Shown here in pieces: positions 2,646 through 50,041 of a stretch of DNA of 64,000 nt; position 1 is the stretch's first letter; every line of letters starts with the position of its first letter. The stretch covers positions 53,326 to 117,325 of the IMG/VR virus record IMGVR_UViG_3300037067_009128; one strand, given 5' to 3'. The notes beneath the pieces were generated by a model that worked only from the letters and a program-made list of their open reading frames with translations, had not been told where the DNA came from and made no database searches. Position numbers and translations under genes: made by a program. The DNA comes from a virus (Duplodnaviria > Caudoviricetes).

Positions 2646-3554
2646 TTATAAAATTGTTTGAAGTTTACTGGGAATCATTGTAGATTTTAATGAGTGCAAT
2701 GATGATATAAATCCGTCATTTCTTAAACTATCTATTAAATCTTTACTATTAATAGCTTTAATTTCATATTCAAAAAGTTTATTATTAAGTAAATACAAAT
2801 TAGGTTTTGGTAGAATTAATTCATCGTCTTCAATAGATTTAATTCTATTATCATGATTTTTTAAATCAATCAGTCTTATATTTCTTTTAACATTTTCAAT
2901 TTCAGTAGGATACATTGATTCTAATGTTTTTAATGGTTCAATTTCACCATTGATGAATCTACATGTTTTAACTTCACCAAATCCTTTTATTCCTTTAATA
3001 TTATCTGATGTGTCACCTAATATAGATAAGTACAAAATAAACTGTTCTTTTGAAACTCCATATTTAGTTTTAATCATATCTTCATCATACTTAATTAAAC
3101 CATCTTTTGGATGGGGTCTTAAAACTTTTATATTATTTTCATCAGAAATTAGTTGTAATAGATCTTTATCATTTGATATAATTGTAATATCTTTTTGAAA
3201 TCGTCTTACAAGATACTCAATACAATCATCAGCTTCATATTCATCCTTTCTTATTTGAGGTATTCCAATTAAAGTACATAAATCTTTTACATTATGAAAA
3301 CACTCAATCATTTCTTCATTAATTTCTTTTCGCTTTTCTTTGTATTGGGGGTATTCTTTTCTTCTCCAATTTTTATCTTTACTACCTTCCCAAGCAATTA
3401 TGAATTTATCTGTAACTCTTGCATAAGAAATTAACATATTAAAAAATCCATAAATACCACCTGTGTGTATTCCTTTTGAAGATTTGAATTTTGAGAATAC
3501 GTGATACGCTCTATATGCTAAATTAGCACCATCTATAAGACAAATATTAGACAT
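2646..3554 (-). CDS. 5'-3' exonuclease / flap endonuclease (PolI N-terminal, T4 RNase H-like)
   Basis: IDGANLAYRAY, YEADD, SNDKDLLQL, LGDTSDNIKGIKGFG. Confidence 0.93.
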   Translation of the reverse strand: MSNICLIDGANLAYRAYHVFSKFKSSKGIHTGGIYGFFNMLISYARVTDKFIIAWEGSKDKNWRRKEYPQYKEKRKEINEEMIECFHNVKDLCTLIGIPQIRKDEYEADDCIEYLVRRFQKDITIISNDKDLLQLISDENNIKVLRPHPKDGLIKYDEDMIKTKYGVSKEQFILYLSILGDTSDNIKGIKGFGEVKTCRFINGEIEPLKTLESMYPTEIENVKRNIRLIDLKNHDNRIKSIEDDELILPKPNLYLLNNKLFEYEIKAINSKDLIDSLRNDGFISSLHSLKSTMIPSKLQTIL

Positions 3555-3989
3555 TTATTTCCATATTATTGTGTTAGATTCATTAAGTATAACTTTATTA
3601 TTTTGAACGAGTTCTTTAACAACATTTTTAACTCGTATTCGAGATGATTTTCCTACTTCAGAATAGCCAAATTCTTTATCTACAGCTTCTATAACAGTTT
3701 TTGTAGTTATTGGGGATTTTTGTTGAATATAATTTATTATCCAATCTTTTCTAGATTCTTTTGAAGTTTTCTTTTTATATTTTTTAATCTTATAATCTTC
3801 AGTTATTTTATATTCTTCCATTGTTTTCATGTACTGATCATATGTAATTTCTAGTAATTCTTCTCTAGATTCAATATCATTTGGAATTGTCATTCCAAAT
3901 TCTTCTTTTACTAATTGTTTTACTTCTTCTAATGAAGCATCAGATTCTACTAAAACCTTTCTAAAACTCTCTTTTGGTATAATATTCAT
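3555..3989 (-). CDS. Putative DNA-binding protein, C-terminal winged-helix-like
   Basis: Helix-helix-helix plus beta-hairpin pattern (WIINYIQ...VKNVVKELVQNNKVILNESNTIIW). Confidence 0.45.
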   Translation of the reverse strand: MNIIPKESFRKVLVESDASLEEVKQLVKEEFGMTIPNDIESREELLEITYDQYMKTMEEYKITEDYKIKKYKKKTSKESRKDWIINYIQQKSPITTKTVIEAVDKEFGYSEVGKSSRIRVKNVVKELVQNNKVILNESNTIIWK

Positions 3990-4022
3990 ATTTAGTCAAA
4001 ATTAGTGGGAAAAAATTTTATA

Positions 4023-4040
4023 CAAAAATAAATCATCATT
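4023..4040 (-). promoter_or_regulatory. GA-N5-TAWWTTTR promoter motif
   Basis: AATGA-tgatt-TATTTTTG on the minus strand, upstream of 3989. Confidence 0.5.
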
Positions 4041-4416
4041 GAATTAATTTCTCTTGTTCTCTTTGTTTCTCATATTGTACTTCTTTTATATCTAAGTATA
4101 CATCTTTAGCTAAATTCCAATTTGGATCATCAGATTCTTCAAGTCTTTCAACTTCTCTTTCTATTAAAGTCATTAACCATTTAGTAAATGATTTAAAATT
4201 TATAAATTTAATATATATTGTAAAAGTTTGAAACATATCAATATGTTGATTTGATATGTATGCTTTAACTGAAGCATTTCTTCCATGTTTATAAAAGATA
4301 TTACTTCCAGGAATCCTAGTATCTTTTATACCATATCTTTTCATTACATCTTTATATTTATACTCTCTCATATTTATCCATTCTTTTAATACCATTACTA
4401 TTAGGACTACCTTCAT
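4036..4416 (-). CDS. Hypothetical protein (likely start ATG 4371)
   Basis: ORF in the minus-strand operon. Confidence 0.55.
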   Translation of the reverse strand: MKVVLIVMVLKEWINMREYKYKDVMKRYGIKDTRIPGSNIFYKHGRNASVKAYISNQHIDMFQTFTIYIKFINFKSFTKWLMTLIEREVERLEESDDPNWNLAKDVYLDIKEVQYEKQREQEKLIQ

Positions 4417-4693
4417 TAAAATTTATATAAAACCATCCAGTTTTTACTAATAATTTATGATACCATCTAATTATATATCTTCCATCATATCTAGGACCTA
4501 AATGTATATAATTTTTATCAAGTTTCATAACATTGTAATTCGGATCTACATTTGTTAAAATTTTACATTGATTAGTAGATAAACGATTTAACTGTATTAT
4601 TCTCAAACCTGGGAAATACTCTTCTTTCATACTTGAATCAAATAAGTATCCTGGATGGATCATATAAATCTTTTTATGTTTCTTTTTAACCAT
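4358..4693 (-). CDS. Hypothetical protein
   Basis: ORF overlapping the helicase stop; GAGG upstream. Confidence 0.55.
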   Translation of the reverse strand: MVKKKHKKIYMIHPGYLFDSSMKEEYFPGLRIIQLNRLSTNQCKILTNVDPNYNVMKLDKNYIHLGPRYDGRYIIRWYHKLLVKTGWFYINFNEGSPNSNGIKRMDKYERV

Positions 4694-6206
4694 TTAAAAC
4701 CTCTTCTAGTTTATTTTTTATTGATACTAAATTATTTACCATAAAGATTTCTGAATGTTTAACTGATTGATAAATTTTTAACCTTTCTTTTGATTGTTTT
4801 CTAAAATATCCTACTTTTGTTTTCCATTGATCTGTGATATTATCTTTAAATTTATGTATACCGTCATCATCATAAAAATCAAATATAAAAAGTTTATTTT
4901 TTCCTGTGGAATAGTCTATTCTTTTTCCTCGTCCAGTCTCTTGTTTAATTCTACCTTCAGCTTTTATACCTCCAGCTCTTATAACACAATCAATATTAGG
5001 GATATCTACACCTTCTTTAGAAACTGTTGTAAGTAATACTTTAATCTTACCAGATTTTAAATCATTATAAATTTTTTCTCTTTGATTATCTGATTTAGTT
5101 CTTTTAGTATCACCTGTAATAAACTGATAACCAGAATTTGAAAATAGAGTCTTTAATTGAATTTGTTTACTATCCATCATTACAAGTGTTGAAAGATTTA
5201 ATTCTTCAAATATTTTAGCTACTTTAAGGATTATATCATTTCTTTCACAATTTTCTAATAATCCTTGAAATCCTTCATGATAATCAGAATTGTATTTGTG
5301 GTTTAATTGATATAAAAATATATAACTTTTACTTAATCTTCCTTTTGAAATTAAAGTATCTTCTTTAATTTCATCAATCATATTACCTGTTATAGCTCTT
5401 AAGATTAATTCATTATCACCTGGTGTAGCTGTAAATCCATATCTATAGTATGCATTACAATTCATAGCTACTTTAAAGTAACCATTTGGTGTGTATAGTT
5501 TAGAAGTTTTATCTTGTTTAATACCAGCATGATGTCCTTCATCTAAAAATAAATTATCAAATTGATTAAACCAGTAATTTTGTTTTAACCTATCAAAATT
5601 AGTATTCAAAGTACTAATACTTGCAACAAAAATAAAATGATCTTTATCAACATTAACAATACTTTGGTTTCCTACAATTTCAATAACTTTTTGATTTGTA
5701 GCTTTTTGAATCTCTTTTGAAACTTGAGAAACTAAATCAATTGATGGTTCTATTATTAGAGATGATCCACCTAATTCACCTAGTAAACTTATTAAAATAG
5801 CAGTTTTTCCAGCCCCAGTAGCAGCTTTGAAATATCCTCTTTCACATTCTAATCCTTTAAGAATCACTCTTACTTGGTCAGAATCTAAATCAAATGTAAA
5901 TCCATAATCAATCCCTTCACTTTCTGGTTTTATTCTTTTGTCTTCAACTTCAATGTCATCTTCATTTATAAAATTAAGTTTGTCAAGTATATTCCAAAGT
6001 AAACCTGTTGGAAAATGATTTGAATTATACAATGCATATTCTTTATTAACAGCATGAGAAGCTCCTGCATATCTTTGAAATGTTAAGAACTTATGAAGAC
6101 ATTCATGGTTTATTACTTGAATTATCCTTGAGGCTTCTCCAACTCCACATTTATTTGAAAATTCAAAATTAGTATAATAATTATATAAAACGAATTTGAT
6201 TTTCAT
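4686..6206 (-). CDS. Superfamily 2 DNA helicase (UvsW/ResIII-like)
   Basis: ATGAGKT, LDEGHH, GFTATP, EGVDIP, QETGRGKR. Confidence 0.92.
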   Translation of the reverse strand: MKIKFVLYNYYTNFEFSNKCGVGEASRIIQVINHECLHKFLTFQRYAGASHAVNKEYALYNSNHFPTGLLWNILDKLNFINEDDIEVEDKRIKPESEGIDYGFTFDLDSDQVRVILKGLECERGYFKAATGAGKTAILISLLGELGGSSLIIEPSIDLVSQVSKEIQKATNQKVIEIVGNQSIVNVDKDHFIFVASISTLNTNFDRLKQNYWFNQFDNLFLDEGHHAGIKQDKTSKLYTPNGYFKVAMNCNAYYRYGFTATPGDNELILRAITGNMIDEIKEDTLISKGRLSKSYIFLYQLNHKYNSDYHEGFQGLLENCERNDIILKVAKIFEELNLSTLVMMDSKQIQLKTLFSNSGYQFITGDTKRTKSDNQREKIYNDLKSGKIKVLLTTVSKEGVDIPNIDCVIRAGGIKAEGRIKQETGRGKRIDYSTGKNKLFIFDFYDDDGIHKFKDNITDQWKTKVGYFRKQSKERLKIYQSVKHSEIFMVNNLVSIKNKLEEVLNG

Positions 6207-39877: not shown

Positions 39878-40123
39878 ATGGCAACAAAATTAAAGTCTTT
39901 ATTTGAAATAAATAATAAAGCATATTATAATTTAGGTTACGAGGAAGGGCATGGCAGCATGGGGAAAGGATATGCTCTTGAATATTATGCCTGTAAAGAT
40001 GGGTTTATTACACGAGTTGAATTTTTTGACGAAAAGGAACATAACGAGCCTTTTTCAAAAGAAAGACACTTACGTGATTTACCTAAGTGGGCTAAAGAAA
40101 GGATAGACTTAATCCCAAAATAA
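39878..40123 (+). CDS. Hypothetical protein
   Basis: AAGGAG RBS. Confidence 0.65.
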   Translation: MATKLKSLFEINNKAYYNLGYEEGHGSMGKGYALEYYACKDGFITRVEFFDEKEHNEPFSKERHLRDLPKWAKERIDLIPK

Positions 40124-40260
40124 CTGCCGATACAAGAATTGTTAAATTATAAACAAAGACAATATTTAGAAAGTGAATTAAATAAAAGGATTATAAATGA
40201 ATGAATTAGAAATAGTTATGTTGTTTTATGTAATATGGGAAATAGCATTGAGTATTTCAG

Positions 40261-41420
40261 AAGATTGATTCTCCCCTCTCAAAGTCAAATCAACCCTTTT
40301 CAATTCCAAATCTGAATTTTTGATTTCTGCAATTACCCATCTACTTTAGTATGTGTTTTTCAAATATTTATTTTTCCATTCTTTTGATACCCTTTTGCAC
40401 CTCGATTTCTCAAGATTCCCAAATTCCCCACAATTTATTTAAAACTTCCTTTCTTCATTCTAACAAACGATCCGACTCCCAACGAGGGCGCTTAAGGAAA
40501 GAATTAATCCTAAGAATAACCGTTTTAATTTAATTTAAATGATAAAAGAATTAAAAATCACTTAACTCTTTGAGATTAAAGAAATAAATTATTGAGTATA
40601 AAATAAATAAAAGAGTAAAGAACAAAGAAATAAACTTCATCATTTGTTTTATTCTTTACAGTTTTATTCTTTATAACATACAGATTAATTCGTTTACATC
40701 ACTTTGTTCTTTGTTTCTTGAAGGTAAATATAGTTTGAAAGAAATATAAATACCTTTTTCATTCTGGAATTGGGAAACTCCAGGTAATCCCTCTAGTCGG
40801 CGATGTTGGCTCCCTGGGCCATAATATGATTCTCGGCCTACGTCTCCTCGACACAAGCCTCAAGGCTCATCTCCCTGAGACATAGAAGTACCTCTTTTTA
40901 CTCATTAGATACTTGAGCTTGAATAGAGATCGAAATTTAATACAAGGGTAAATTTGATTTATTCTTTGAGATCTCTTCCCTACAGAAGATTAATCTATCC
41001 AATCATTGATAACCTCTTCTTTACGGAAGATATACAAATAATATAAAGACAACAAGCTAACTTATGATCTCTATGATTCTATATAGACACTACTTGACCT
41101 TTCAAGGCCCAAAGTGTATGTTATAGACCTTAGAGAAATCAAAGTCAACTTCTGGCCAATGGGAATGAAAAATAAAGAACGAAGTGATATGGCCAGGCAT
41201 TTATGTTTACAGCTTCATGCACGTGGCCACCACTGGGCTCGCAAAGAATGAGGATAATAAGAATGAGGGGGAGGACTGCGAACCCACTGGATATTATTGG
41301 CCCAAAGGATTGTGTAGATTGGAAGTTGGGTTACAAGTTTCTTGGCAAGTTGGAACGTGGATTGATACAAATATAAAAACAACTTTCCATCATACTAACT
41401 CACCTTTGTTGATTGACAAT
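40261..41420. other. Long non-coding, strand-asymmetric region with short repeats (candidate terminus, origin or ncRNA)
   Basis: No convincing gene; pyrimidine-rich left part, purine-rich right part; clustered GGCC and short direct/inverted repeats. Confidence 0.5.
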
Positions 41421-41547
41421 TGAATTGTTAAATTGCCTTATATCCTTGTATTATATATACAGTTTATATATGCAATTGTATATTGAATTGTATAATTAAA
41501 ATTCTAAATTATTGCTGTAGATAAGTAAAAAGATTATAAAATTTTAC

Positions 41548-41576
41548 TTGCATATGTGGAATAAATTCTTTATACT
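41548..41576 (+). promoter_or_regulatory. Sigma-70-type promoter
   Basis: TTGCAT-17bp-TATACT. Confidence 0.75.
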
Positions 41577-41617
41577 TAAACAAACGATTTATTAAATAAT
41601 TAAAAGGAGTTAATCTA

Positions 41618-41860
41618 ATGTTTGATAGAATAAAAAAATTGTCATTAAATTGTAAAAATTGGTTAGTAAAACAATATCAAATAGAAGATATTGACTTATT
41701 CTACGACCACTTAATTGGTGATAAAAAAGAAAAACCTACTACTTGTAATTATAAATTAAACAAAGCATTAAAAGAATTTCAAAATAATTTTAATACATCA
41801 GAAATAAAAGAATTCCATATTACTTTTATTTCAATGTTAAAATCAAAACAATTATATTAA
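41618..41860 (+). CDS. Hypothetical immediate-early protein
   Basis: AAGGAG RBS directly after the promoter. Confidence 0.7.
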   Translation: MFDRIKKLSLNCKNWLVKQYQIEDIDLFYDHLIGDKKEKPTTCNYKLNKALKEFQNNFNTSEIKEFHITFISMLKSKQLY

Positions 41861-41974
41861 AAGGAATAAGATTTTTATTGGACTAATATCCAAGAAAATT
41901 TATCATTGAGTATGAAGGAAAGAAATATTTTTCAAAAGAAGTATAATTTATTTTTACTTTTTTTAATATTTTAC

Positions 41975-42003
41975 TTGCATATATCAAAAAACAATATTAT
42001 ATT
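41975..42003 (+). promoter_or_regulatory. Sigma-70-type promoter
   Basis: TTGCAT-17bp-TATATT; shares TTTTACTTGCATAT with the 41548 promoter. Confidence 0.7.
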
Positions 42004-42064
42004 TAAGTAGTTCTTATATGTATTTAATTTTAATTCCCTGTTGACTTGAGACGTTAAACAGTTT

Positions 42065-42077
42065 AGTTCTTTGACAT
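42065..42077 (+). promoter_or_regulatory. boxA-like antitermination site
   Basis: AGTTCTTTGACAT in a ~200-nt leader; resembles rrn boxA (GYTCTTTRACA). Confidence 0.5.
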
Positions 42078-42206
42078 TATGATGACTAAGTTTCAAAGAT
42101 ATTTAAGAACATATCTTTATTAGTGTATGTTAAGAAGTTATCAACCTATCATAAAAACTTCATATCATTAAAAATATATTTTTAATTTAATTCAAAGGAA
42201 TAAAAA

Positions 42207-42653
42207 ATGGAAAATGGTAAAATCGATTTTAGTAATGTTTCACGTTCTAATGGTTCAGTTTTACAATTGGAATTGAACGATGAAAAGAAACTTGTTTCTT
42301 TAGGCTTAATTGGAAAGCCTTTAACAATGTCTGACTTGAAACAAGTAAAGGCTTATAACGATATTACAGGCAAAATCACAAGGAATGCCTATCGTAAACA
42401 GATTTCTACTTTAATCGGAAATGAGGTATTAACCTTAAAACAGATTAGGGAAAGATTTAATGTTGTTACCTGTTTTGGTAACTTAAAATCCCTTGATTGC
42501 TTAGGTGCTTATAGCCAAAAAGAAAGCAATGGTAAAATTTCTGATAAGTACTTTATCATATTTCTGCCAAAAGAATCAGGGAAAGTAAAAGCAGAACCAA
42601 AGGCAAAAAAGAAGGAAAATGAAGTAAAGGAAAATGAGCCTGTTATTGAATAG
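42207..42653 (+). CDS. Hypothetical immediate-early protein
   Basis: AAGGA RBS; codon usage looks different from neighbouring blocks. Confidence 0.75.
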   Translation: MENGKIDFSNVSRSNGSVLQLELNDEKKLVSLGLIGKPLTMSDLKQVKAYNDITGKITRNAYRKQISTLIGNEVLTLKQIRERFNVVTCFGNLKSLDCLGAYSQKESNGKISDKYFIIFLPKESGKVKAEPKAKKKENEVKENEPVIE

Positions 42654-42734
42654 GTAAGATTATGAGAATTTTGTTTAATCTATTCATCATAATTGCATTA
42701 CTTTACTTAATTCTTTGTTAGTTTAAGTAAACAA

Positions 42735-42769
42735 ATTAAGGCTATATTAAGTTATAGCCTTAATATTTT
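42735..42769 (+). terminator. Perfect 12-bp hairpin, terminator-like
   Basis: ATTAAGGCTATA-ttaagt-TATAGCCTTAAT. Confidence 0.7.
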
Positions 42770-42794
42770 AATCACTATTATATTGGAGTATCAA

Positions 42795-42881
42795 ATGAAA
42801 ACTAATAATCTTATTTACTGGTTAATCCCTGTTTTTCTGTTCTTACCTATTATTCTGTTTATATGGAGTATCATATTATGA
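42795..42881 (+). CDS. 28-aa hydrophobic micro-protein
   Basis: MKTNNLIYWLIPVFLFLPIILFIWSIIL; GGAG RBS. Confidence 0.5.
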   Translation: MKTNNLIYWLIPVFLFLPIILFIWSIIL

Positions 42882-43498
42882 AAGTATTATATATTAACCA
42901 TATCCCCATTTACTATGGTTATATTAAACCTTTACAAAAATCGTATCGGTTTATTCTTAATTAAATAATTGATAGTAAAAAACTATTAAAATTCGAAGCA
43001 ATCGTTCGAATTAGTTATCTTGAATTATCTCTGGTGGTAAAAATAATTAACCCATACTATGATCATATTTTGAAATTGACTTGTCAATTCAATTGGTGAA
43101 CAAACGATAAGCTGGAGATCATAACATGATGGAGACCAAAAAGAGTTGAAATGTGTGGGACTTCAAAAGACCTGGAATGTGGGAGACCCCAGGTTAACAT
43201 AAAATTGGGAGACATTTTTAATAGGCCACAATTTTCACCTTGACTAGTGTTTCCCCAAAATTTTTCTCACAATTTTTGAATTTCACATCAAAAAAAATAC
43301 CTCTTTCAGCCTAGCAATGGTAAAACCTATTTCTATAATTTTTATATTGAACTTCAAATCTTATTGGTGACAAGATTAAATACTGAGAAAAACTCAATTC
43401 AACAAACACCAATTGCTTTGAGACTCCCACAAGAATCTCTTAACTCGAATTAGATTTGAATTTCATAAACAATTTAATCAAATTCCAAAAGGAAAAAA

Positions 43499-44293
43499 TT
43501 GTCAGAACTAACATTCTCAAGTCTACTTAAAAAAAGTAAAGAAATCACTCAACAATTTGATGCTTTAAAGAAATTAAAGAATCTTGGGGAAAACTCCATT
43601 CTTGAAGACCGAGAACAATCTACATTTTGGATTGTATCAAAAGAAGGTGAAAGGATTCGAGCAATATGTGGACATAGAAACAATAAAGGGATATGCTTCA
43701 GACCTGCGGGATGGGGGACAGACCATGTTGGATTCAGCAAATGTAAAGACCACATGAGAGGAAGTCTGTACAATTCATTACTTTCTGCTCAACACAACTA
43801 CCCTACAAGACTTGTTGAACTTCTAGAATTCACTAATGATCTAGAAGACAGGTCTTTGAATTCACTCGATCCAGAAATTAAAATGTTAACTGCACTTTAT
43901 CAATTTGTACTCACAAGGCCTAGAGACTCTGAGGACATGGATGTAGAAGAAATAGATACAATAAGAGAGATAATTAAAGATTTGGTAAAAACTAAAGCAT
44001 TGAGAAACAAGATTCAAAGGGAAATGAGACTGGATGCATCAAGTGTCAAAGAGTTCGTACATCAAATTTTCAGTGTCATTTCGTATGCAGTAAATCCAGC
44101 GGTAGCAAAGAAGATCATGGAAGACATCAACAACAAAGTTCTGGTACCATTCATGAGCAAAGACAGAATCATTGGGAAAGACATGAACTTCGAAACAAAA
44201 GCTGCAGAGACTATCAAGAAGTATGGGAACACACTCAAAAATATTGAGAAAGTAAAAGAATCAAAAGATGAGGAAAAAGGAGAAGAAGAATGA
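43499..44293 (+). CDS. Probable terminase small subunit
   Basis: CGH...C.RPAGWGTDHVGFSKCKDH motif of the HGGxSTG-like TerS type; lies upstream of TerL. Confidence 0.65.
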   Translation: MSELTFSSLLKKSKEITQQFDALKKLKNLGENSILEDREQSTFWIVSKEGERIRAICGHRNNKGICFRPAGWGTDHVGFSKCKDHMRGSLYNSLLSAQHNYPTRLVELLEFTNDLEDRSLNSLDPEIKMLTALYQFVLTRPRDSEDMDVEEIDTIREIIKDLVKTKALRNKIQREMRLDASSVKEFVHQIFSVISYAVNPAVAKKIMEDINNKVLVPFMSKDRIIGKDMNFETKAAETIKKYGNTLKNIEKVKESKDEEKGEEE

Positions 44294-44502
44294 AATTCTT
44301 TGAAGATGAAGGAATCGAAAATCAAGAAATTTCTGATATGAAAACTAATAATCCATGTTATGGAGTAAACTGAATGACTCAGGGGATAACATTAGAAATT
44401 AAAGAAGGACAAGCAGAAATTATTTTATTAAGAGAAGAATTAGAAGCTTTATTAAGATATTGGCAAAAAGATGAAATACCTGAATTTGAGAGGAATTGAA
44501 TA

Positions 44503-46017
44503 ATGGGATTAAGAGATAATCGTATAAAACCAATGGGAAACAGTCAATTTTATGACTTGAATACAGACCCTAATGATGTATTATTTAATGAAGCAAGTAA
44601 ATGGGTTGAAGACTTTCAAAGTAATAATAACAAAGCTCAATTCCCTTGGAACTCTCAAATTGCAGAAGAATTCAGAACTGTACCTATACAAACATTAATA
44701 AAAGATCCATACTTTTTAGGCTTTGAAGATAATGTATATGATGGAGTGTTGAATGATATTGTGGATTTGTTTGAAGCTAAAAAAGTACATCCAATACATC
44801 TTGCTATATTTCTAGAAGGGATAGGAGCAGGGAAGACGGTTAAGGCGAGCATTCTGATGTGGATGATCTGGTATTATCTATCAATGGACCCCGATCCTCA
44901 AAGTGTCCACACTCTTGCACCAAGATCAGTCATTGCTTTATTAATGATGAGCCGGTCAGAATTACAGGCTAAGAGGATTACATTCGGAGAAGTATGGAAT
45001 CGATTCCAATCACCTTTCAATAAAGATTATTTCCCTCCAGCTGAGAGATTCAATAGAGAAATTAGAATTGAAGTCAATAATACTTGCGTTTATGCAGGTA
45101 CTAGTTCTGCCCTTTCAAGTTTGGGATACAACTTGTTTGGAGGAGTGATAGACGAAGCTTGTTTAATAAAATCAACTCTACAAAGGGTAAAATTTGAAAA
45201 TCAAATTGATTTAAGTAATATAAATTTGCACCAAAAAAATTTACATAGTGGTGCTATTGTAAGTTCATATAATATAACAAATAAAAAAGTTGAAAACCAA
45301 TTCTCAAAAGGTATATCTTCTATAGGTTTTAGAGAGATATACGAGGTAGAACTGGAAGATGGAACTATTCTAGGTCTTACTGGTAATCAAAAAGTCTTAA
45401 TTAAAACTTCTGATGGAAAAGAGGTTTATAAAAGAGTTGACCAGTTGACTGGAAATGAAGATTTAAGAGAAATGAAAATAAAATCAATTCGTAAAAAAGA
45501 AGTTTTAGAACCTGTTTATGATGTTGTTAACGTTAAAAACAATAAAAACTTTTTAGTAAAAACTGATTCTGGAAAATATATAGTTTTACACAATTCATTT
45601 CTTGAATCAACTGAAGAATCTAAAAAATCTGAAGATAAGTACGATGCATGTGAAGAAATATACCATGCAATCTTTAATAGGATGATTTCTAGGTTCTTAA
45701 AGAAAGGAAGAATCCCAGGGTTACTTTGTATGGTCACATCTCCTAATTTCCCTGATGATTTTGTACATAAAAAGATAGATGAAGCTAAGGCAAAAGGAGT
45801 CGATTCTGGAATTTTTTACAGGATTAGGTCTACATGGGATGCAAAAGGGGAAAGATATTATCCTGTAAAAGATGCATTTTATATCAATACTGATGATTCA
45901 GAGATTATAAATGATGATAATTTAACACAACTTTTAAATGCAATTCCTAAAAAAATGTATCCATTAGATTACGATATGGAATTATTAACTAAACTTGCAA
46001 AATATTTTATAAAATGA
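44503..46017 (+). CDS. Terminase large subunit, N-terminal ATPase part, with intein
   Basis: Walker A GIGAGKT, Walker B GGVIDEA|S, motif III VTSP. Confidence 0.88.
   Translation: MGLRDNRIKPMGNSQFYDLNTDPNDVLFNEASKWVEDFQSNNNKAQFPWNSQIAEEFRTVPIQTLIKDPYFLGFEDNVYDGVLNDIVDLFEAKKVHPIHLAIFLEGIGAGKTVKASILMWMIWYYLSMDPDPQSVHTLAPRSVIALLMMSRSELQAKRITFGEVWNRFQSPFNKDYFPPAERFNREIRIEVNNTCVYAGTSSALSSLGYNLFGGVIDEACLIKSTLQRVKFENQIDLSNINLHQKNLHSGAIVSSYNITNKKVENQFSKGISSIGFREIYEVELEDGTILGLTGNQKVLIKTSDGKEVYKRVDQLTGNEDLREMKIKSIRKKEVLEPVYDVVNVKNNKNFLVKTDSGKYIVLHNSFLESTEESKKSEDKYDACEEIYHAIFNRMISRFLKKGRIPGLLCMVTSPNFPDDFVHKKIDEAKAKGVDSGIFYRIRSTWDAKGERYYPVKDAFYINTDDSEIINDDNLTQLLNAIPKKMYPLDYDMELLTKLAKYFIK
45160..45594 (+). 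mobile_element. Mini-intein (145 aa) just after the TerL Walker B
   Basis: Starts CLIKS; block F VYDV; ends VLHN with Ser+1; block B reads TGNQ instead of TxxH. Confidence 0.88.
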
Positions 46018-46025
46018 GGTAAACC

Positions 46026-46532
46026 ATGAATCCTAATATTTATTATCATGTGATAGATGTAGAAACGACTACTTTTGATCCTATAAAAGGTGATATATGT
46101 GAATTAGCAGTATTAAGTTGTAGAGGAAGAGAAGTATATAACATATTTCACAAGTATTATTCTGTTGATTACATGAATATTGATGCTCAAAATACACATA
46201 AACTTTCAATTGATATGCTTTCAAATTGGCCTAAATTCAATTCTGAATGTAATATTAAAGAGTTGAATAATATTTTTAGTGTTGGAAGAAGTATCTGGGG
46301 ACATAATCTTCCATTTGATATAAGGTTTTTAACTAAATATGGAGTTTGTATTAATAATCTTTACCAAAAAGATACACTTAAAATGTTAAAAGGTGAAGGA
46401 CTTAAACTTGAAAATAATAAATTAACAACTTGGTTAAATCATTATGGTATTGAGATAAGTAATCATAGTGCTTTGGGTGATGCATTTGGTACATTTCAAT
46501 TGATTACTTTAAAAGGTTGGCAATTATTATGA
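46026..46532 (+). CDS. DEDDh 3'-5' exonuclease (DnaQ-like)
   Basis: IDVETT, GHNLPFDIRFL, DTL, HSALGDA. Confidence 0.9.
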   Translation: MNPNIYYHVIDVETTTFDPIKGDICELAVLSCRGREVYNIFHKYYSVDYMNIDAQNTHKLSIDMLSNWPKFNSECNIKELNNIFSVGRSIWGHNLPFDIRFLTKYGVCINNLYQKDTLKMLKGEGLKLENNKLTTWLNHYGIEISNHSALGDAFGTFQLITLKGWQLL

Positions 46533-46708
46533 TTTTTGGTGAAGTCATGTTATGTGATTTTCCCAATTGTAAATATAAAACTGATAATAAAAATAATAAA
46601 GAATGGGTAATATTTGGAAAATACACATATTGTAAGTTACATAAACACTGGGGAAGTAACAAGGTTAAAATAAAAAGAAATTTATATGATAATAAGAGCA
46701 CCAAATGA
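46517..46708 (+). CDS. Small putative Zn-finger protein
   Basis: CDFPNC...YCKLH. Confidence 0.5.
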   Translation: MAIIMIFGEVMLCDFPNCKYKTDNKNNKEWVIFGKYTYCKLHKHWGSNKVKIKRNLYDNKSTK

Positions 46709-47693
46709 TCCTATATTAAAGTCTTCTGCAGAAGGAGATCCTGAGAGATTTATTAGAGATATAGCATGTATTCCTAGAACAGGATTAAAAGCATTTATAA
46801 GAAGACCTAAAAAGATGTATAATTGTGTAAAGGATTACCCGAATCCTTTTAATCCTGAAACTTATAAATTCATTGAAGGGTATAAATGTAAAGACAATCT
46901 CAGAAGGTATCTACATATAGATCTTGCTAAAAATAGAGATGCTATCGGTATTGCTATGGCACATGTACCTAATTTTATAGATAGGGAAGTAATAGAAGAG
47001 AATAGTAAAAGAAAGATAAAAGTTAAAGCTCCAATAGTAAGATTGGATTTTTGGGGTAGAATTACTGTTAGTTCTAAAGAAGAATATGTACTTGGAGATA
47101 TACGTGAAATAGTTTATGACCTTTCAAGAATGGGATTTTATATAGGGTTAATCACTTTAGATAGATTTCAATCATTAGATTCTATTCAAATTTTAAAAAG
47201 TTATGGGTATATTGCTGCTAATATGTCAATAGATAAAACAGCATATTACATAAGACTTTCTGATGTTGGAGAATCAAATAAAGACGGTTATAATAGAGTG
47301 TCTACTAATGGTTGTCATAATTATGCTGTTACTACATTAAAAGAATTAGCATATGATGATAGACTTGAAGCTCCTAATAGTTCAAGATGGTATAAAGAAG
47401 ATTTCTTTGTTCAAGAGTGTATAAGATCTCAAGAAGGAAAAAAAGGTAAAGTAGATCATTTACCTAATTATCATAATGATGTTATGCAAGCTGCTGCTGG
47501 TTGCATAACGAATGCAGTTTCAAATGAAATATTTATAATGAATAATGAATCTGAGAAAGATTTAGAGAAAATGAAAGATGAATATTATAGTCAAATTAAA
47601 AGTTTAGATAATAATTTAATAAAACAAGAAAGTTATCTTGATTACAATACTGATGATCCAAGAGATATCGGTACTGAGAGGTACCAACTTTAA
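46686..47693 (+). CDS. Terminase large subunit, C-terminal RNase-H-fold nuclease part
   Basis: DPERFIRD, HIDLAKNRDAIGIAMAH, ITLDRFQS, KVDHLPNYHNDVMQAAAG; directly upstream of portal. Confidence 0.85.
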   Translation: MIIRAPNDPILKSSAEGDPERFIRDIACIPRTGLKAFIRRPKKMYNCVKDYPNPFNPETYKFIEGYKCKDNLRRYLHIDLAKNRDAIGIAMAHVPNFIDREVIEENSKRKIKVKAPIVRLDFWGRITVSSKEEYVLGDIREIVYDLSRMGFYIGLITLDRFQSLDSIQILKSYGYIAANMSIDKTAYYIRLSDVGESNKDGYNRVSTNGCHNYAVTTLKELAYDDRLEAPNSSRWYKEDFFVQECIRSQEGKKGKVDHLPNYHNDVMQAAAGCITNAVSNEIFIMNNESEKDLEKMKDEYYSQIKSLDNNLIKQESYLDYNTDDPRDIGTERYQL

Positions 47694-47710
47694 TCTATTA
47701 TAACATAACA

Positions 47711-49441
47711 ATGAGTAATAAAATGAGAAAAAAACCATCAAATCCTAGAATTAAATCCACACCAACAGTTGATATAGATTCTGATTTAAAAGCTGGGTAT
47801 AAATCTGAAGAAGATCTTCAAAGAATTATAGGGAAAGCTATTGATTTACACAAACATTATCATCAAGATGATTTGTATAATCAAGTTGCTCCTGTTGATA
47901 AAGTAAGTATCTTTAATTCAGAATTTACTAAAAAGAAGATAAAAAATGAAGATGTTAAAGATATTATATCTTCTGCATTTAATTATTTTCCTGATTGTGA
48001 AATTACTCAAGAAGAATTATTTTTATTACAAAATGCAATAAGAACTAAATATAGAGATGATAATCTTTGTCAAGGAGTTGTAGATTCTTTTGTTGATTAT
48101 GTTATTGGAAGTGGAGTTACGGTTAATTCTCCAGTAAAAGAGGTTAATGATGTTTTATGTGATTTCAGAAATATGAATAAAATGGCATTAAGAGAAAGGA
48201 ATATAACGAAAGACATATTTCTTGATGGAGAATATTTTTGTTTGATTTACACAGATAAGTCTGGGAATTGTTTTTTAAGGAAAGCAGCACCTTCTATGAT
48301 AACTTCTATAGAAACATCAAGAAGAGATATAGAAGCTGTTTTATCATTTAAAAAAGATGCTGTTGAGTATGATAGTGAAGGAAATCCTTCTGGAGTCCCT
48401 TTCACTCAATATATAAAGAATATTGATTATGATAAACTTATAAAAATGACTGATTTAGGATACATTCCAAGTGTATATTCAAGTAAATTAGAAAAAAATG
48501 TTGTTTGTAAATTCTTCAAGTTATCTGAAGAAGGTGTATTACGAGGAAGACCTCCTTTGAGGAATTTCCCAAAATATGCTAAACTTTATGAAAATTTTAT
48601 TATGGATAGAATGGTTTTGAATCATGAAAGATCTAAAGTTGTGTGGATAAAGAAACTTAAAGGGAGAACTTCAGAAGAGACATCATCAACTGCTCCTAGA
48701 GGTGGTATGATGTTGGTTGAAAGAGATGGGATTGAATATAGAATTGAATCTTCAAAATTAGATTCTGCAGAAGCAAAAGAAGATGCACTACATATACTTT
48801 ATTACTTAGGTTCTGGCATAAGATACCCTTTACATATCTTAAATCAACGTACATCTGAAGAAGTTTATGCCTCGATTCGTAAAAGTGATACTCCTTTCAG
48901 TACAATGATAACTGGTTACCAATGGTATGAAGCATTAGAATTTCAAGAAATATATAAATATACTATAGAGCAAAAAGTTAAAGCAAAGAAATTAAAGAAA
49001 CAGTATACATATCCAGCATATTCTGAAGAAAGTGTTATGTTTGCATTACTTAAAGTGACTGAATTAATTGAAGATGATGTTAACAGACCTACAGAAGAAA
49101 TATTAAATGTAGTTGATGGGATTTTAAAATCTGATGGATTAAAGGATATAACTAAAAATACTCTTGAAATACCTATTTCTCAAGATTTTCCTCAAATTAT
49201 TTGGCAAGACCCAAAAGAGATGGCAGAAGTATTGAAGATCCATAAAGAAATAGGTATTGCTTCTATACCATCACTTGCTGCTAAAGCGGGATATAATTGG
49301 GAAAGAGAATTCTCTAAAATCATTATAACTCAAAAACAGTTATTAAAAAATAACATTATTCCTGATCCTAATCCACCTAAAGAAACTGGAACAGAAAAAC
49401 CTAATGGAAACAAAACAAGTAAACCTGTTAATAAGAAGTAA
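47711..49441 (+). CDS. Portal protein
   Basis: Size and position after TerL; DYVIGSG, FLDGEYF and RGRPPL motifs. Confidence 0.8.
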   Translation: MSNKMRKKPSNPRIKSTPTVDIDSDLKAGYKSEEDLQRIIGKAIDLHKHYHQDDLYNQVAPVDKVSIFNSEFTKKKIKNEDVKDIISSAFNYFPDCEITQEELFLLQNAIRTKYRDDNLCQGVVDSFVDYVIGSGVTVNSPVKEVNDVLCDFRNMNKMALRERNITKDIFLDGEYFCLIYTDKSGNCFLRKAAPSMITSIETSRRDIEAVLSFKKDAVEYDSEGNPSGVPFTQYIKNIDYDKLIKMTDLGYIPSVYSSKLEKNVVCKFFKLSEEGVLRGRPPLRNFPKYAKLYENFIMDRMVLNHERSKVVWIKKLKGRTSEETSSTAPRGGMMLVERDGIEYRIESSKLDSAEAKEDALHILYYLGSGIRYPLHILNQRTSEEVYASIRKSDTPFSTMITGYQWYEALEFQEIYKYTIEQKVKAKKLKKQYTYPAYSEESVMFALLKVTELIEDDVNRPTEEILNVVDGILKSDGLKDITKNTLEIPISQDFPQIIWQDPKEMAEVLKIHKEIGIASIPSLAAKAGYNWEREFSKIIITQKQLLKNNIIPDPNPPKETGTEKPNGNKTSKPVNKK

Positions 49442-49533
49442 TGAAGAATTTGATTTGGAAATACCTTCTGAGCTTCAAGAATATAATTTATATATAAATA
49501 CTGTAAGTAATAAGGATGTTGAGGTAAAAAAAG

Positions 49534-49899
49534 ATGGAAATTTTAGAAATACCGATTATGACCATAACCCCTATAGTTAATGGGAGTAAAAAAGAATTAA
49601 AGTTTACATGTTATCAATCAATAGAATCTGGGTCTTTATTTACAGGTTTAAGTACTTCTAGTATAGAAGTAGTACTTAAAAGAAGTATACAGTCAAGTAC
49701 AGTTTTAACCAAGAAGACAGCAAATCTAATAGGTGGTGCTGATACTCAAGTTAAAGTTAATAACGATTCTAATTTTTCTATTTTTTTATTAGACACAGAT
49801 ACTGAAGGTTTAACTAATTATACATATATTTTTATTATAAAGATAACTCTTACAGATCAGAGTATTTATAAAATGTATGTAAATGTCCCAATCATATAA
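49534..49899 (+). CDS. BppU-N-like Ig-fold virion protein
   Basis: Beta-rich; FSIFLLDTDTEGL..YTYIF pattern. Confidence 0.5.
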   Translation: MEILEIPIMTITPIVNGSKKELKFTCYQSIESGSLFTGLSTSSIEVVLKRSIQSSTVLTKKTANLIGGADTQVKVNNDSNFSIFLLDTDTEGLTNYTYIFIIKITLTDQSIYKMYVNVPII

Positions 49900-50041
49900 G
49901 GATTAAATCCATGGCTTGTAAAATTGGTAAGAAAACTAAAAAGATGAATGTTACTAAAAAACATATGACGAATTCTTCAAGGACATCTCAATTTCCAACA
50001 ATTAATAGAACTAGAACTTTGATTTTAAAAAAGAAATCAAA

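Follow-up and report, generated by a model that had tools for sequence, protein, structure and literature searches.

The large terminase subunit (TerL) of phages such as T4 (gp17), HK97, P74-26/G20c, D6E and Sf6 (gp2) is a single chain, in which an ATPase domain and an RNase H-like nuclease domain are connected by a linker. To our knowledge, all structural and single-molecule models of the terminase motor (T4, P74-26, HK97 and phi29) treat the two as covalently linked domains, and the relative movement of these linked domains, or their arrangement on the portal, is central to the models. The DNA considered here, referred to as the window, is a whole stretch of 64 kb (IMG/VR record IMGVR_UViG_3300037067_009128), the closing part of a viral genome of 117,325 bp that was assembled as a single contig from a groundwater metagenome (25% G+C; 95% complete by CheckV). 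In the window the two TerL domains are encoded by separate genes, with a DEDDh exonuclease gene and a small open reading frame (micro-ORF) lying between them, and comparison with relatives suggests that this large terminase is probably made as two polypeptides, which would associate non-covalently.

Terminase genes in pieces have been described before. In Jug phages terL is split by group I introns, whose splicing was seen in metatranscriptomes, and gene fragmentation by group I introns and inteins was also stated for crAss-like phages (PMC12880540), while the terL of Campylobacter phage IBB_35 holds both an intron and an intein (PMC3322345). Such genes resemble the present locus in that terL is annotated in pieces with ORFs between them, and in having inteins in the same gene. 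However, RNA splicing rejoins their pieces, whereas here there is no detectable ribozyme and no non-coding space, and the downstream half has its own conserved start. The closest functional precedent is another essential phage enzyme, NrdA of Aeromonas phage Aeh1, which is split by the inserted homing endonuclease gene mobE into separately translated chains that reassemble non-covalently (Crona et al. 2011, PMC3045599; Friedrich et al. 2007 PNAS). In contrast to Aeh1, the constant insert here is a DEDDh exonuclease, with no recognisable homing endonuclease gene in the gap of the window (Pfam, Atlas); the split is ancient and family-wide where that of Aeh1 is confined to one phage; and reassembly in the window clade is a proposal.

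An earlier note on this DNA, made by a model from the sequence, had allowed that the split might be standard in a described phage family; it proved standard across a large uncultured clade, but no published description of a TerL with its ATPase and nuclease as separate translated genes was found. The P2-type annotations 'terminase ATPase subunit / endonuclease subunit' presumably denote ordinary large and small subunits, and are not a precedent. Bacillus phage 0305phi8-36 was also considered as a split-terminase precedent and set aside, as its paper has none.

Two halves of one terminase

Both hallmarks of a TerL, the ATPase motifs and the RNase H-like nuclease domain, are present at this locus, but the single polypeptide is not. 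The upstream gene (the N half) has conserved Walker A (GIGAGKT, ~residues 105–111), Walker B (VIDEA, 215–219) and coupling (TSP, 412–414) motifs. The earlier note had the motifs of this half and its stop at 46017 right, but overlooked a 145-aa cis-intein within the 504 aa. Its account of the downstream gene (the C half), as an RNase H-fold half starting at 46686 with the motif DPERFIRD, was borne out, since the motif is present and conserved and the nuclease fold is matched. When both halves are aligned to contiguous TerL homologues, the check that it had proposed, they match the same genes, those of Vibrio phage vB_VhaS-a (2240–4249 of L001; L numbers denote individual loci) and Gordonia phage GMA7. 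Identity to the contiguous TerL genes of cultured phages is ~30% by tblastn for each half, the N half matching in two pieces that flank the intein and the C half matching the C-terminal halves of the genes. The spliced form of the N half aligns by blastp with residues 88–349 of the Vibrio phage TerL (E 3e-40). Neither half is matched as a terminase by Pfam, PHROG, NCBIfam or PDB sequence search, and the identity of both rests on tblastn to annotated TerL genes together with fold.

In AlphaFold models, N-half residues 59–468 match TerL ATPase domains with Z of ~16 (HK97 residues 1–259, Z 16.6; P74-26 residues 3–241; T4 gp17 residues 80–345), and C-half residues 32–284 match TerL nuclease domains with Z of 14–15 overall (G20c residues 255–442, Z 15.4; D6E residues 232–417; HK97 residues 274–483; T4 gp17 residues 355–562). 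Acidic residues D79, D159, D165 and D183 of the C half are invariant, and D265 is present in at least 90% of rows. After both halves are mapped, only the 9–18-residue interdomain linkers of the reference structures remain uncovered, so that the break, on these models, falls in the TerL interdomain linker.

The nuclease chain opens with a head of 31 residues in two helices (MIIRAP...DPERFIRDIACIP; N-terminal peptide MIIRAPNDPILK), followed by the RNase H-like domain. Every stand-alone C half keeps this head, and so do fused TerLs (P0021 'TEVPIELRNEFERDPERSLRDL'; GMA7 'FERDPVKALRDLAGIP'), with the motif DPENFIRDIA again found in fused relatives, and the C half is collinear with the fused TerLs from residue 1. 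The N-half stop codon occupies 46015–46017 and two ORFs separate it from the C-half start. The nuclease half is the sole copy in the 117-kb genome, which holds no other terminase.

The locus thus shares with one-chain TerLs both folds, the Walker A and B and coupling motifs, the acidic residues, an adjacent portal gene and, in the window, a TerS-like gene upstream. It differs from them in that the domains of the window clade are separate genes, cut in the linker, with 1–6 unrelated genes between. In terms of family, the locus combines TerL domains with a class 1-like mini-intein and a DnaQ-like exonuclease (Table 1).

The most likely pathway begins with transcription of the packaging module as one late operon, in which translation of the two chains would be coupled with that of the intervening genes. 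The ATPase chain would mature by cis-splicing of the 145-aa intein, which sits directly after Walker B, and the nuclease chain would start at its own ATG, at the position of the interdomain linker of a one-chain TerL. The chains would then associate via the surfaces that join the domains in one-chain TerLs, and the likely docking element is the two-helix head conserved in the nuclease chain.

Table 1. Packaging-module features of the window, in window positions
Feature	Position	Strand	Evidence or remark
TerS-like gene, 264 aa	43499..44293	+	conserved, directly 5' of TerL N half; probable small terminase
41-aa ORF	44374-44499		between TerS-like gene and TerL N half, filling the space
TerL ATPase chain, precursor 504 aa (359 aa minus intein)	44503..46017	+	tblastn, blastp, fold
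Putative cis-splicing mini-intein, 145 aa, residues 220-364	45160..45594	+	extein abutment, Pfam, motifs
DnaQ-like DEDDh 3'-5' exonuclease, 168 aa	46026..46532	+	Pfam RNase_T, phrog_192, PDB
Cys/His micro-ORF, 59 aa from ATG 46529 (63 aa from TTG 46517)	46529..46708	+	ORF, motif
TerL nuclease chain, 335 aa	46686..47693	+	tblastn, stand-alone homologues, fold
Portal protein gene	47711..49441	+	PHROG portal families, E 1e-5 to 2e-4; closes packaging module

Conservation of the split and its junctions

A search of 5.8 billion proteins with the C half returned 14 stand-alone homologues at 41–57% identity, which, where complete, have a common start residue (M-I-I-[RK]-V-P). A single-protein query of viral contigs found no relatives, but an alignment of the C-half homologues used as query succeeded, yielding 38 IMG/VR loci that were mapped by tblastn and ORF maps. 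The order N half, exonuclease, 0–5 ORFs, C half, portal is found in 29 related loci at 37–55% identity, making 30 with the window, and the portal gene is likewise conserved directly after the C half. The exceptions are L036, which is split with other cargo, and L033, L039 and L040, which are fused at the break point. In L037 (118–2426), a distant relative, the halves lie in different frames with a 53-nt gap and no cargo; a minimal split, a frameshift or a sequencing error might each explain this.

The sampling was widened by a profile search of 1.84 billion representative proteins, which gave 2,745 matches. Classification of 162 proteins (the 150 best matches plus earlier ones) identified 94 stand-alone C halves and 56 fused proteins. 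On a quick, midpoint-rooted FastTree of the nuclease domain, from which fragments with less than 70% coverage were left out, the half of the tree that holds the window has 76 split and 13 fused rows, and the window sub-clade of 37 rows is split throughout; between 4 (counting well-supported branches only) and 15 changes of state are needed. Among the cultured phages of INPHARED none exceeds ~31% identity to the C halves, and the matches in vB_VhaS-a and GMA7 are to fused genes.

That the arrangement is an assembly chimera, or that the terminase gene is decaying and non-functional, is barely credible. The genome does come from a single metagenome assembly, and the N half carries, in addition, an intein with an atypical block B. 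However, in an unrelated landfill metagenome from 2018, Logan contigs are 100% identical to the window over 45961–46262 and 46459–46721, bridging both junctions, and as these contigs are independent the split is not an assembly error; the chimera that the earlier note had named as a way for its reading to fail is thereby set aside. More than 30 independent contigs have the same arrangement, the catalytic residues of both halves are conserved across 41–55% identity, and a genome that is 95% complete offers no second terminase in place of this one. In the source run, a single joint of 46061 to 46318 was seen on one low-depth contig (side 27), and looks like another organism or a repeat.

Splicing, ligation and inteins

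Two routes by which the halves might still end up in one chain have to be weighed. In the first, a group I or group II intron containing the exonuclease gene and the micro-ORF would be removed from the mRNA, and the halves translated as one chain. In the Jug phages, split terL has been traced to group I introns (PMC12880540), the IBB_35 terL combines an intron with an intein (PMC3322345), and the genes of the window are co-transcribed as far as can be told. There is no terminator-like site on the plus strand between 42764 and 50000, and promoter-like sites do not exceed their frequency in shuffled sequence. Nevertheless, we consider an intron very unlikely. The window gap of 668 nt has only 8 non-coding nt, the gap of L009 and of L034 is filled by a single ORF with spacers of 0–3 nt, and the longest non-coding run is at most 19 nt in 30 split loci (28 with the exonuclease, plus L036); because the gaps are almost wholly coding, there is no room for a ribozyme core. 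Rfam gave nothing in 40000–50000 at E ≤ 1, and nothing in 15 related loci at the gathering threshold. The cargo also varies, from one to six genes, and both the ATG and the N-terminus of the C half are conserved. Often the stop codon of the N half shares bases with the start of the exonuclease gene (TAATG), and the C-half ATG abuts or overlaps the preceding stop, which is the pattern expected of cistrons coupled in translation. Ribosomal bypassing was considered as well, and is ruled out by gaps of 510–2431 nt that encode other proteins.

In the second route, a split intein, whether typical or atypically split, or some other protein-joining chemistry would ligate the chains post-translationally. 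TerL is a hot spot for inteins, and the terL gene of the window and its relatives have cis-inteins at three sites, but ligation appears highly improbable. The Pfam intein match is confined to N-half residues 250–319, with none in the C half, which has no residue in front of its collinearity with fused TerLs. The N halves of most relatives end right after the last ATPase strand, leaving no tail; the window N chain has a 36-residue tail past this strand, which is common only to its nearest relatives. A Cys, Ser or Thr nucleophile together with an HN pair is missing from the ends, and the absence of split-intein ends at the break, as given in the earlier note, holds, with no intein fragment or nucleophile at either end.

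The N half does, on sequence, carry a candidate cis-splicing intein. The insert lies precisely between Walker B (...VIDEA) and SFLES, is missing from 16 aligned homologues, and its exteins abut exactly on the Vibrio phage TerL (residue 248 to 250, blastp). Its ends (VIDEA/CLIKST...IVLHN/SFLES, with slashes at the boundaries) provide Cys1, a C-terminal HN and Ser+1, whereas the intein-free homologues have Asn or Ala at the +1 position. Pfam Intein_splicing scores the insert at 30.4 bits (E 4e-7), below the 35.8 cut-off, and its best PDB match is the Npu DnaE intein, a weak match in which block B is aligned (TGNQ vs Npu TKDH). The insert resembles Npu DnaE and other class 1 mini-inteins in Cys1, the block F Asp, the C-terminal HN with Ser+1, the length of ~145 aa and the insertion at an active-site motif; it is unlike them in its block B, which is TGNQ and not TxxH, and in scoring under the Pfam gathering cut-off. 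A related intein (32% identity) is found at L034:4631–5074, inserted five residues upstream; it scores 39.4 bits, above the Pfam cut-off, and has TADQ as its block B. Since Gln occupies the same block B position in both, it looks like a family trait and not decay, and the two may belong to a small lineage of inteins whose function does not require the block B histidine. An intein lacking this histidine is known from Tko CDC21-1.

The other two sites are occupied in relatives. An intein of ~410 aa with a LAGLIDADG domain interrupts the P-loop (EGIG/C...HN/SGKT) in L003 (1035–2270; Pfam Intein_splicing 46.9 bits, LAGLIDADG_3 69 bits), and also in L007, L012, L018, L019, L029 and L034. A nuclease-half intein follows ...ITFDRF in L034 (5995–7407; P0015) and L035 (1341–3338), giving the L034 terminase three inteins plus the split. 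The TerL of L033 (3178–6957) has its halves fused at the linker and an insert of ~1.9 kb at the Walker B site; this insert contains a separate-frame ORF (4724–5461, beginning ...NEIYCGDC) that looks like an N4/N6 DNA methyltransferase. The ATPase half itself consists of two ORFs in different frames in L011 (3157–4910) and L026 (3126–4879), where a 423-aa ORF ends ~200 residues beyond the Walker B region and a 168-aa ORF holds the remainder. A split intein at the Walker B site, or a frameshift there, could account for this and would make the terminase one of three pieces.

The exonuclease, the cargo slot and the motor

The first gene in the gap was identified in the earlier note as a DEDDh exonuclease, and this is upheld by a Pfam RNase_T match of 58.2 bits against a cut-off of 24 (E 1.9e-15), assignment to phrog_192, and PDB matches to DnaQ (8h18, E 4e-8) and Cas2-DEDDh (8fy9). 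All catalytic residues are present (D11, E13, D98, H147 and D152), and D11, E13 and D152 do not vary among 20 unique sequences; at position 98 the window and some relatives have Asp, and others have Glu. The exonuclease lies in the gap in all 30 loci with the exonuclease-type split, usually in first place and coupled to the N half.

The micro-gene that the earlier note had placed after it, as a Zn-finger gene, is there too, with the Cys/His motif C-x-F-P-x-C ... Y-C-K-x-H-x-H. The ATG at 46529 is more likely to be its start than the TTG at 46517; read from this ATG, it overlaps its neighbours at both ends, at the exonuclease stop (ATGA) and over the first 23 nt of the C half. It belongs to no family in Pfam, PHROG or NCBIfam, and its Atlas matches are all sub-threshold. 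A single homologue is detectable, at the same position in L003 (3704–3949; pairwise E 3e-6), with the common motif C-x-[FY]-P-x-C...W-[VI]-I...Y-C-K-x-H-x-H.

Other genes are also found in the gap of related loci. These include an endolysin with GH108 and PG_binding_3 domains (18 loci), an Amidase_2 endolysin (L018 and L029), DUF4031 (L004–L006), a GT11-like gene (L013, L021 and L023) and several small ORFs. A LAGLIDADG endonuclease is confined to L007, where the gene is free-standing (2854–3501) and the C half follows at 3495–4475; this C half lacks an ATG, GTG or TTG where the conserved start would be, and tblastn still aligns it from residue 1. The exonuclease is missing from L036 and L037, which are split, and from the fused L033, whose 12.9-kb locus has no match to it; on this pattern the exonuclease goes with the slot, not with packaging as a whole. 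As the slot also holds lysis genes, the exonuclease is read as a founding, persistent passenger, and the gap is probably an ancient, tolerated cargo slot with the exonuclease as its constant occupant and founder.

These observations bear on the main mechanistic rival of a two-chain holoenzyme, in which the ATPase chain alone is the motor, as in phi29 gp16, and the nuclease chain is recruited separately, as a free nuclease for headful cutting or initiation that possibly acts on DNA ends together with the exonuclease. We regard this as unlikely, though it accounts for several features. Most N halves end cleanly at the ATPase domain, the N-terminal domain of the phi29 ATPase is among the structural matches of the N half (5hd9, Z 12.1), and the exonuclease, with its catalytic residues conserved, is a constant of the gap, as described above. 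However, the nuclease chain keeps the linker and head of fused TerLs, which suggests docking on the ATPase, and the exonuclease tracks the slot, being absent from L036, L037 and the surroundings of the fused TerL of L033, while endolysins occupy the same slot. A further variant, a coupled three-part packaging set, appears quite unlikely. Here a free ATPase motor and a free headful nuclease would be joined by the exonuclease as a functional accessory that trims or proofreads the cut ends, and the separation of motor and nuclease would be adaptive, for example in control of cutting or in escape from host sensors of whole TerL.

The earlier note had proposed a two-chain terminase, with the exonuclease possibly linked to end processing. 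The first part is strengthened by the clade-wide break, the own start of the nuclease chain, the coding gaps and the confirmed junctions. For the second the evidence is strict co-location, which a founder insertion kept in a tolerated cargo slot explains equally, and a role of the exonuclease in DNA end processing is possible but unsupported.

The preferred reading, that of two non-covalently associated chains, is one in which we infer the separateness of the chains in the cell, their mutual binding and the splicing of the intein. Several points weigh against it. That the chains would stay separate is read from their sequence, and the contact of the head helices with the ATPase chain is putative. 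The block B histidine is absent from the window intein, so its competence in splicing is not guaranteed. Fused forms are scattered inside the split clade of the tree, and some of the 'stand-alone' calls in the databases could be gene-calling artefacts. Finally, Kanamaru and co-workers are said to have found in 2004 that the separate ATPase and nuclease domains of T4 gp17 keep partial activities but that packaging needs the full-length protein; a two-chain enzyme would therefore need compensating contacts.

If the large terminase is indeed a two-chain enzyme, the covalent link between ATPase and nuclease is dispensable, and this clade offers a natural experiment on the need for both halves to sit in one chain. 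It would also lend itself to the questions of which domain binds the portal, how cutting is triggered at headful, and whether or not the stoichiometry of motor and nuclease is fixed. Because no terminase profile family recognises either half, TerL-based viral classification will mis-handle the clade, as will gene callers. The linker would, in addition, serve phages as a stable place in which to keep late genes, endolysins among them.

Upstream of the N half, the TerS-like gene has tblastn homologues at 29–55% identity directly 5' of the N half in 23 related loci. It has no match in Pfam, PHROG or NCBIfam, and is, by position, a probable small terminase.

The same gene order as in the window is also found in L041 (DATDSF010000038.1, 121,445 bp), which is binned as a Nanoarchaeia metagenome-assembled genome (MAG). 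The packaging module of L041 is a complete phage one, and the contig appears to be a phage genome binned in error; public databases list it, together with another close relative, P0008, among DPANN or 'archaeon' MAGs (Candidatus Nanoarchaeia). Related loci encode peptidoglycan-binding endolysins, which point to hosts among the bacteria.

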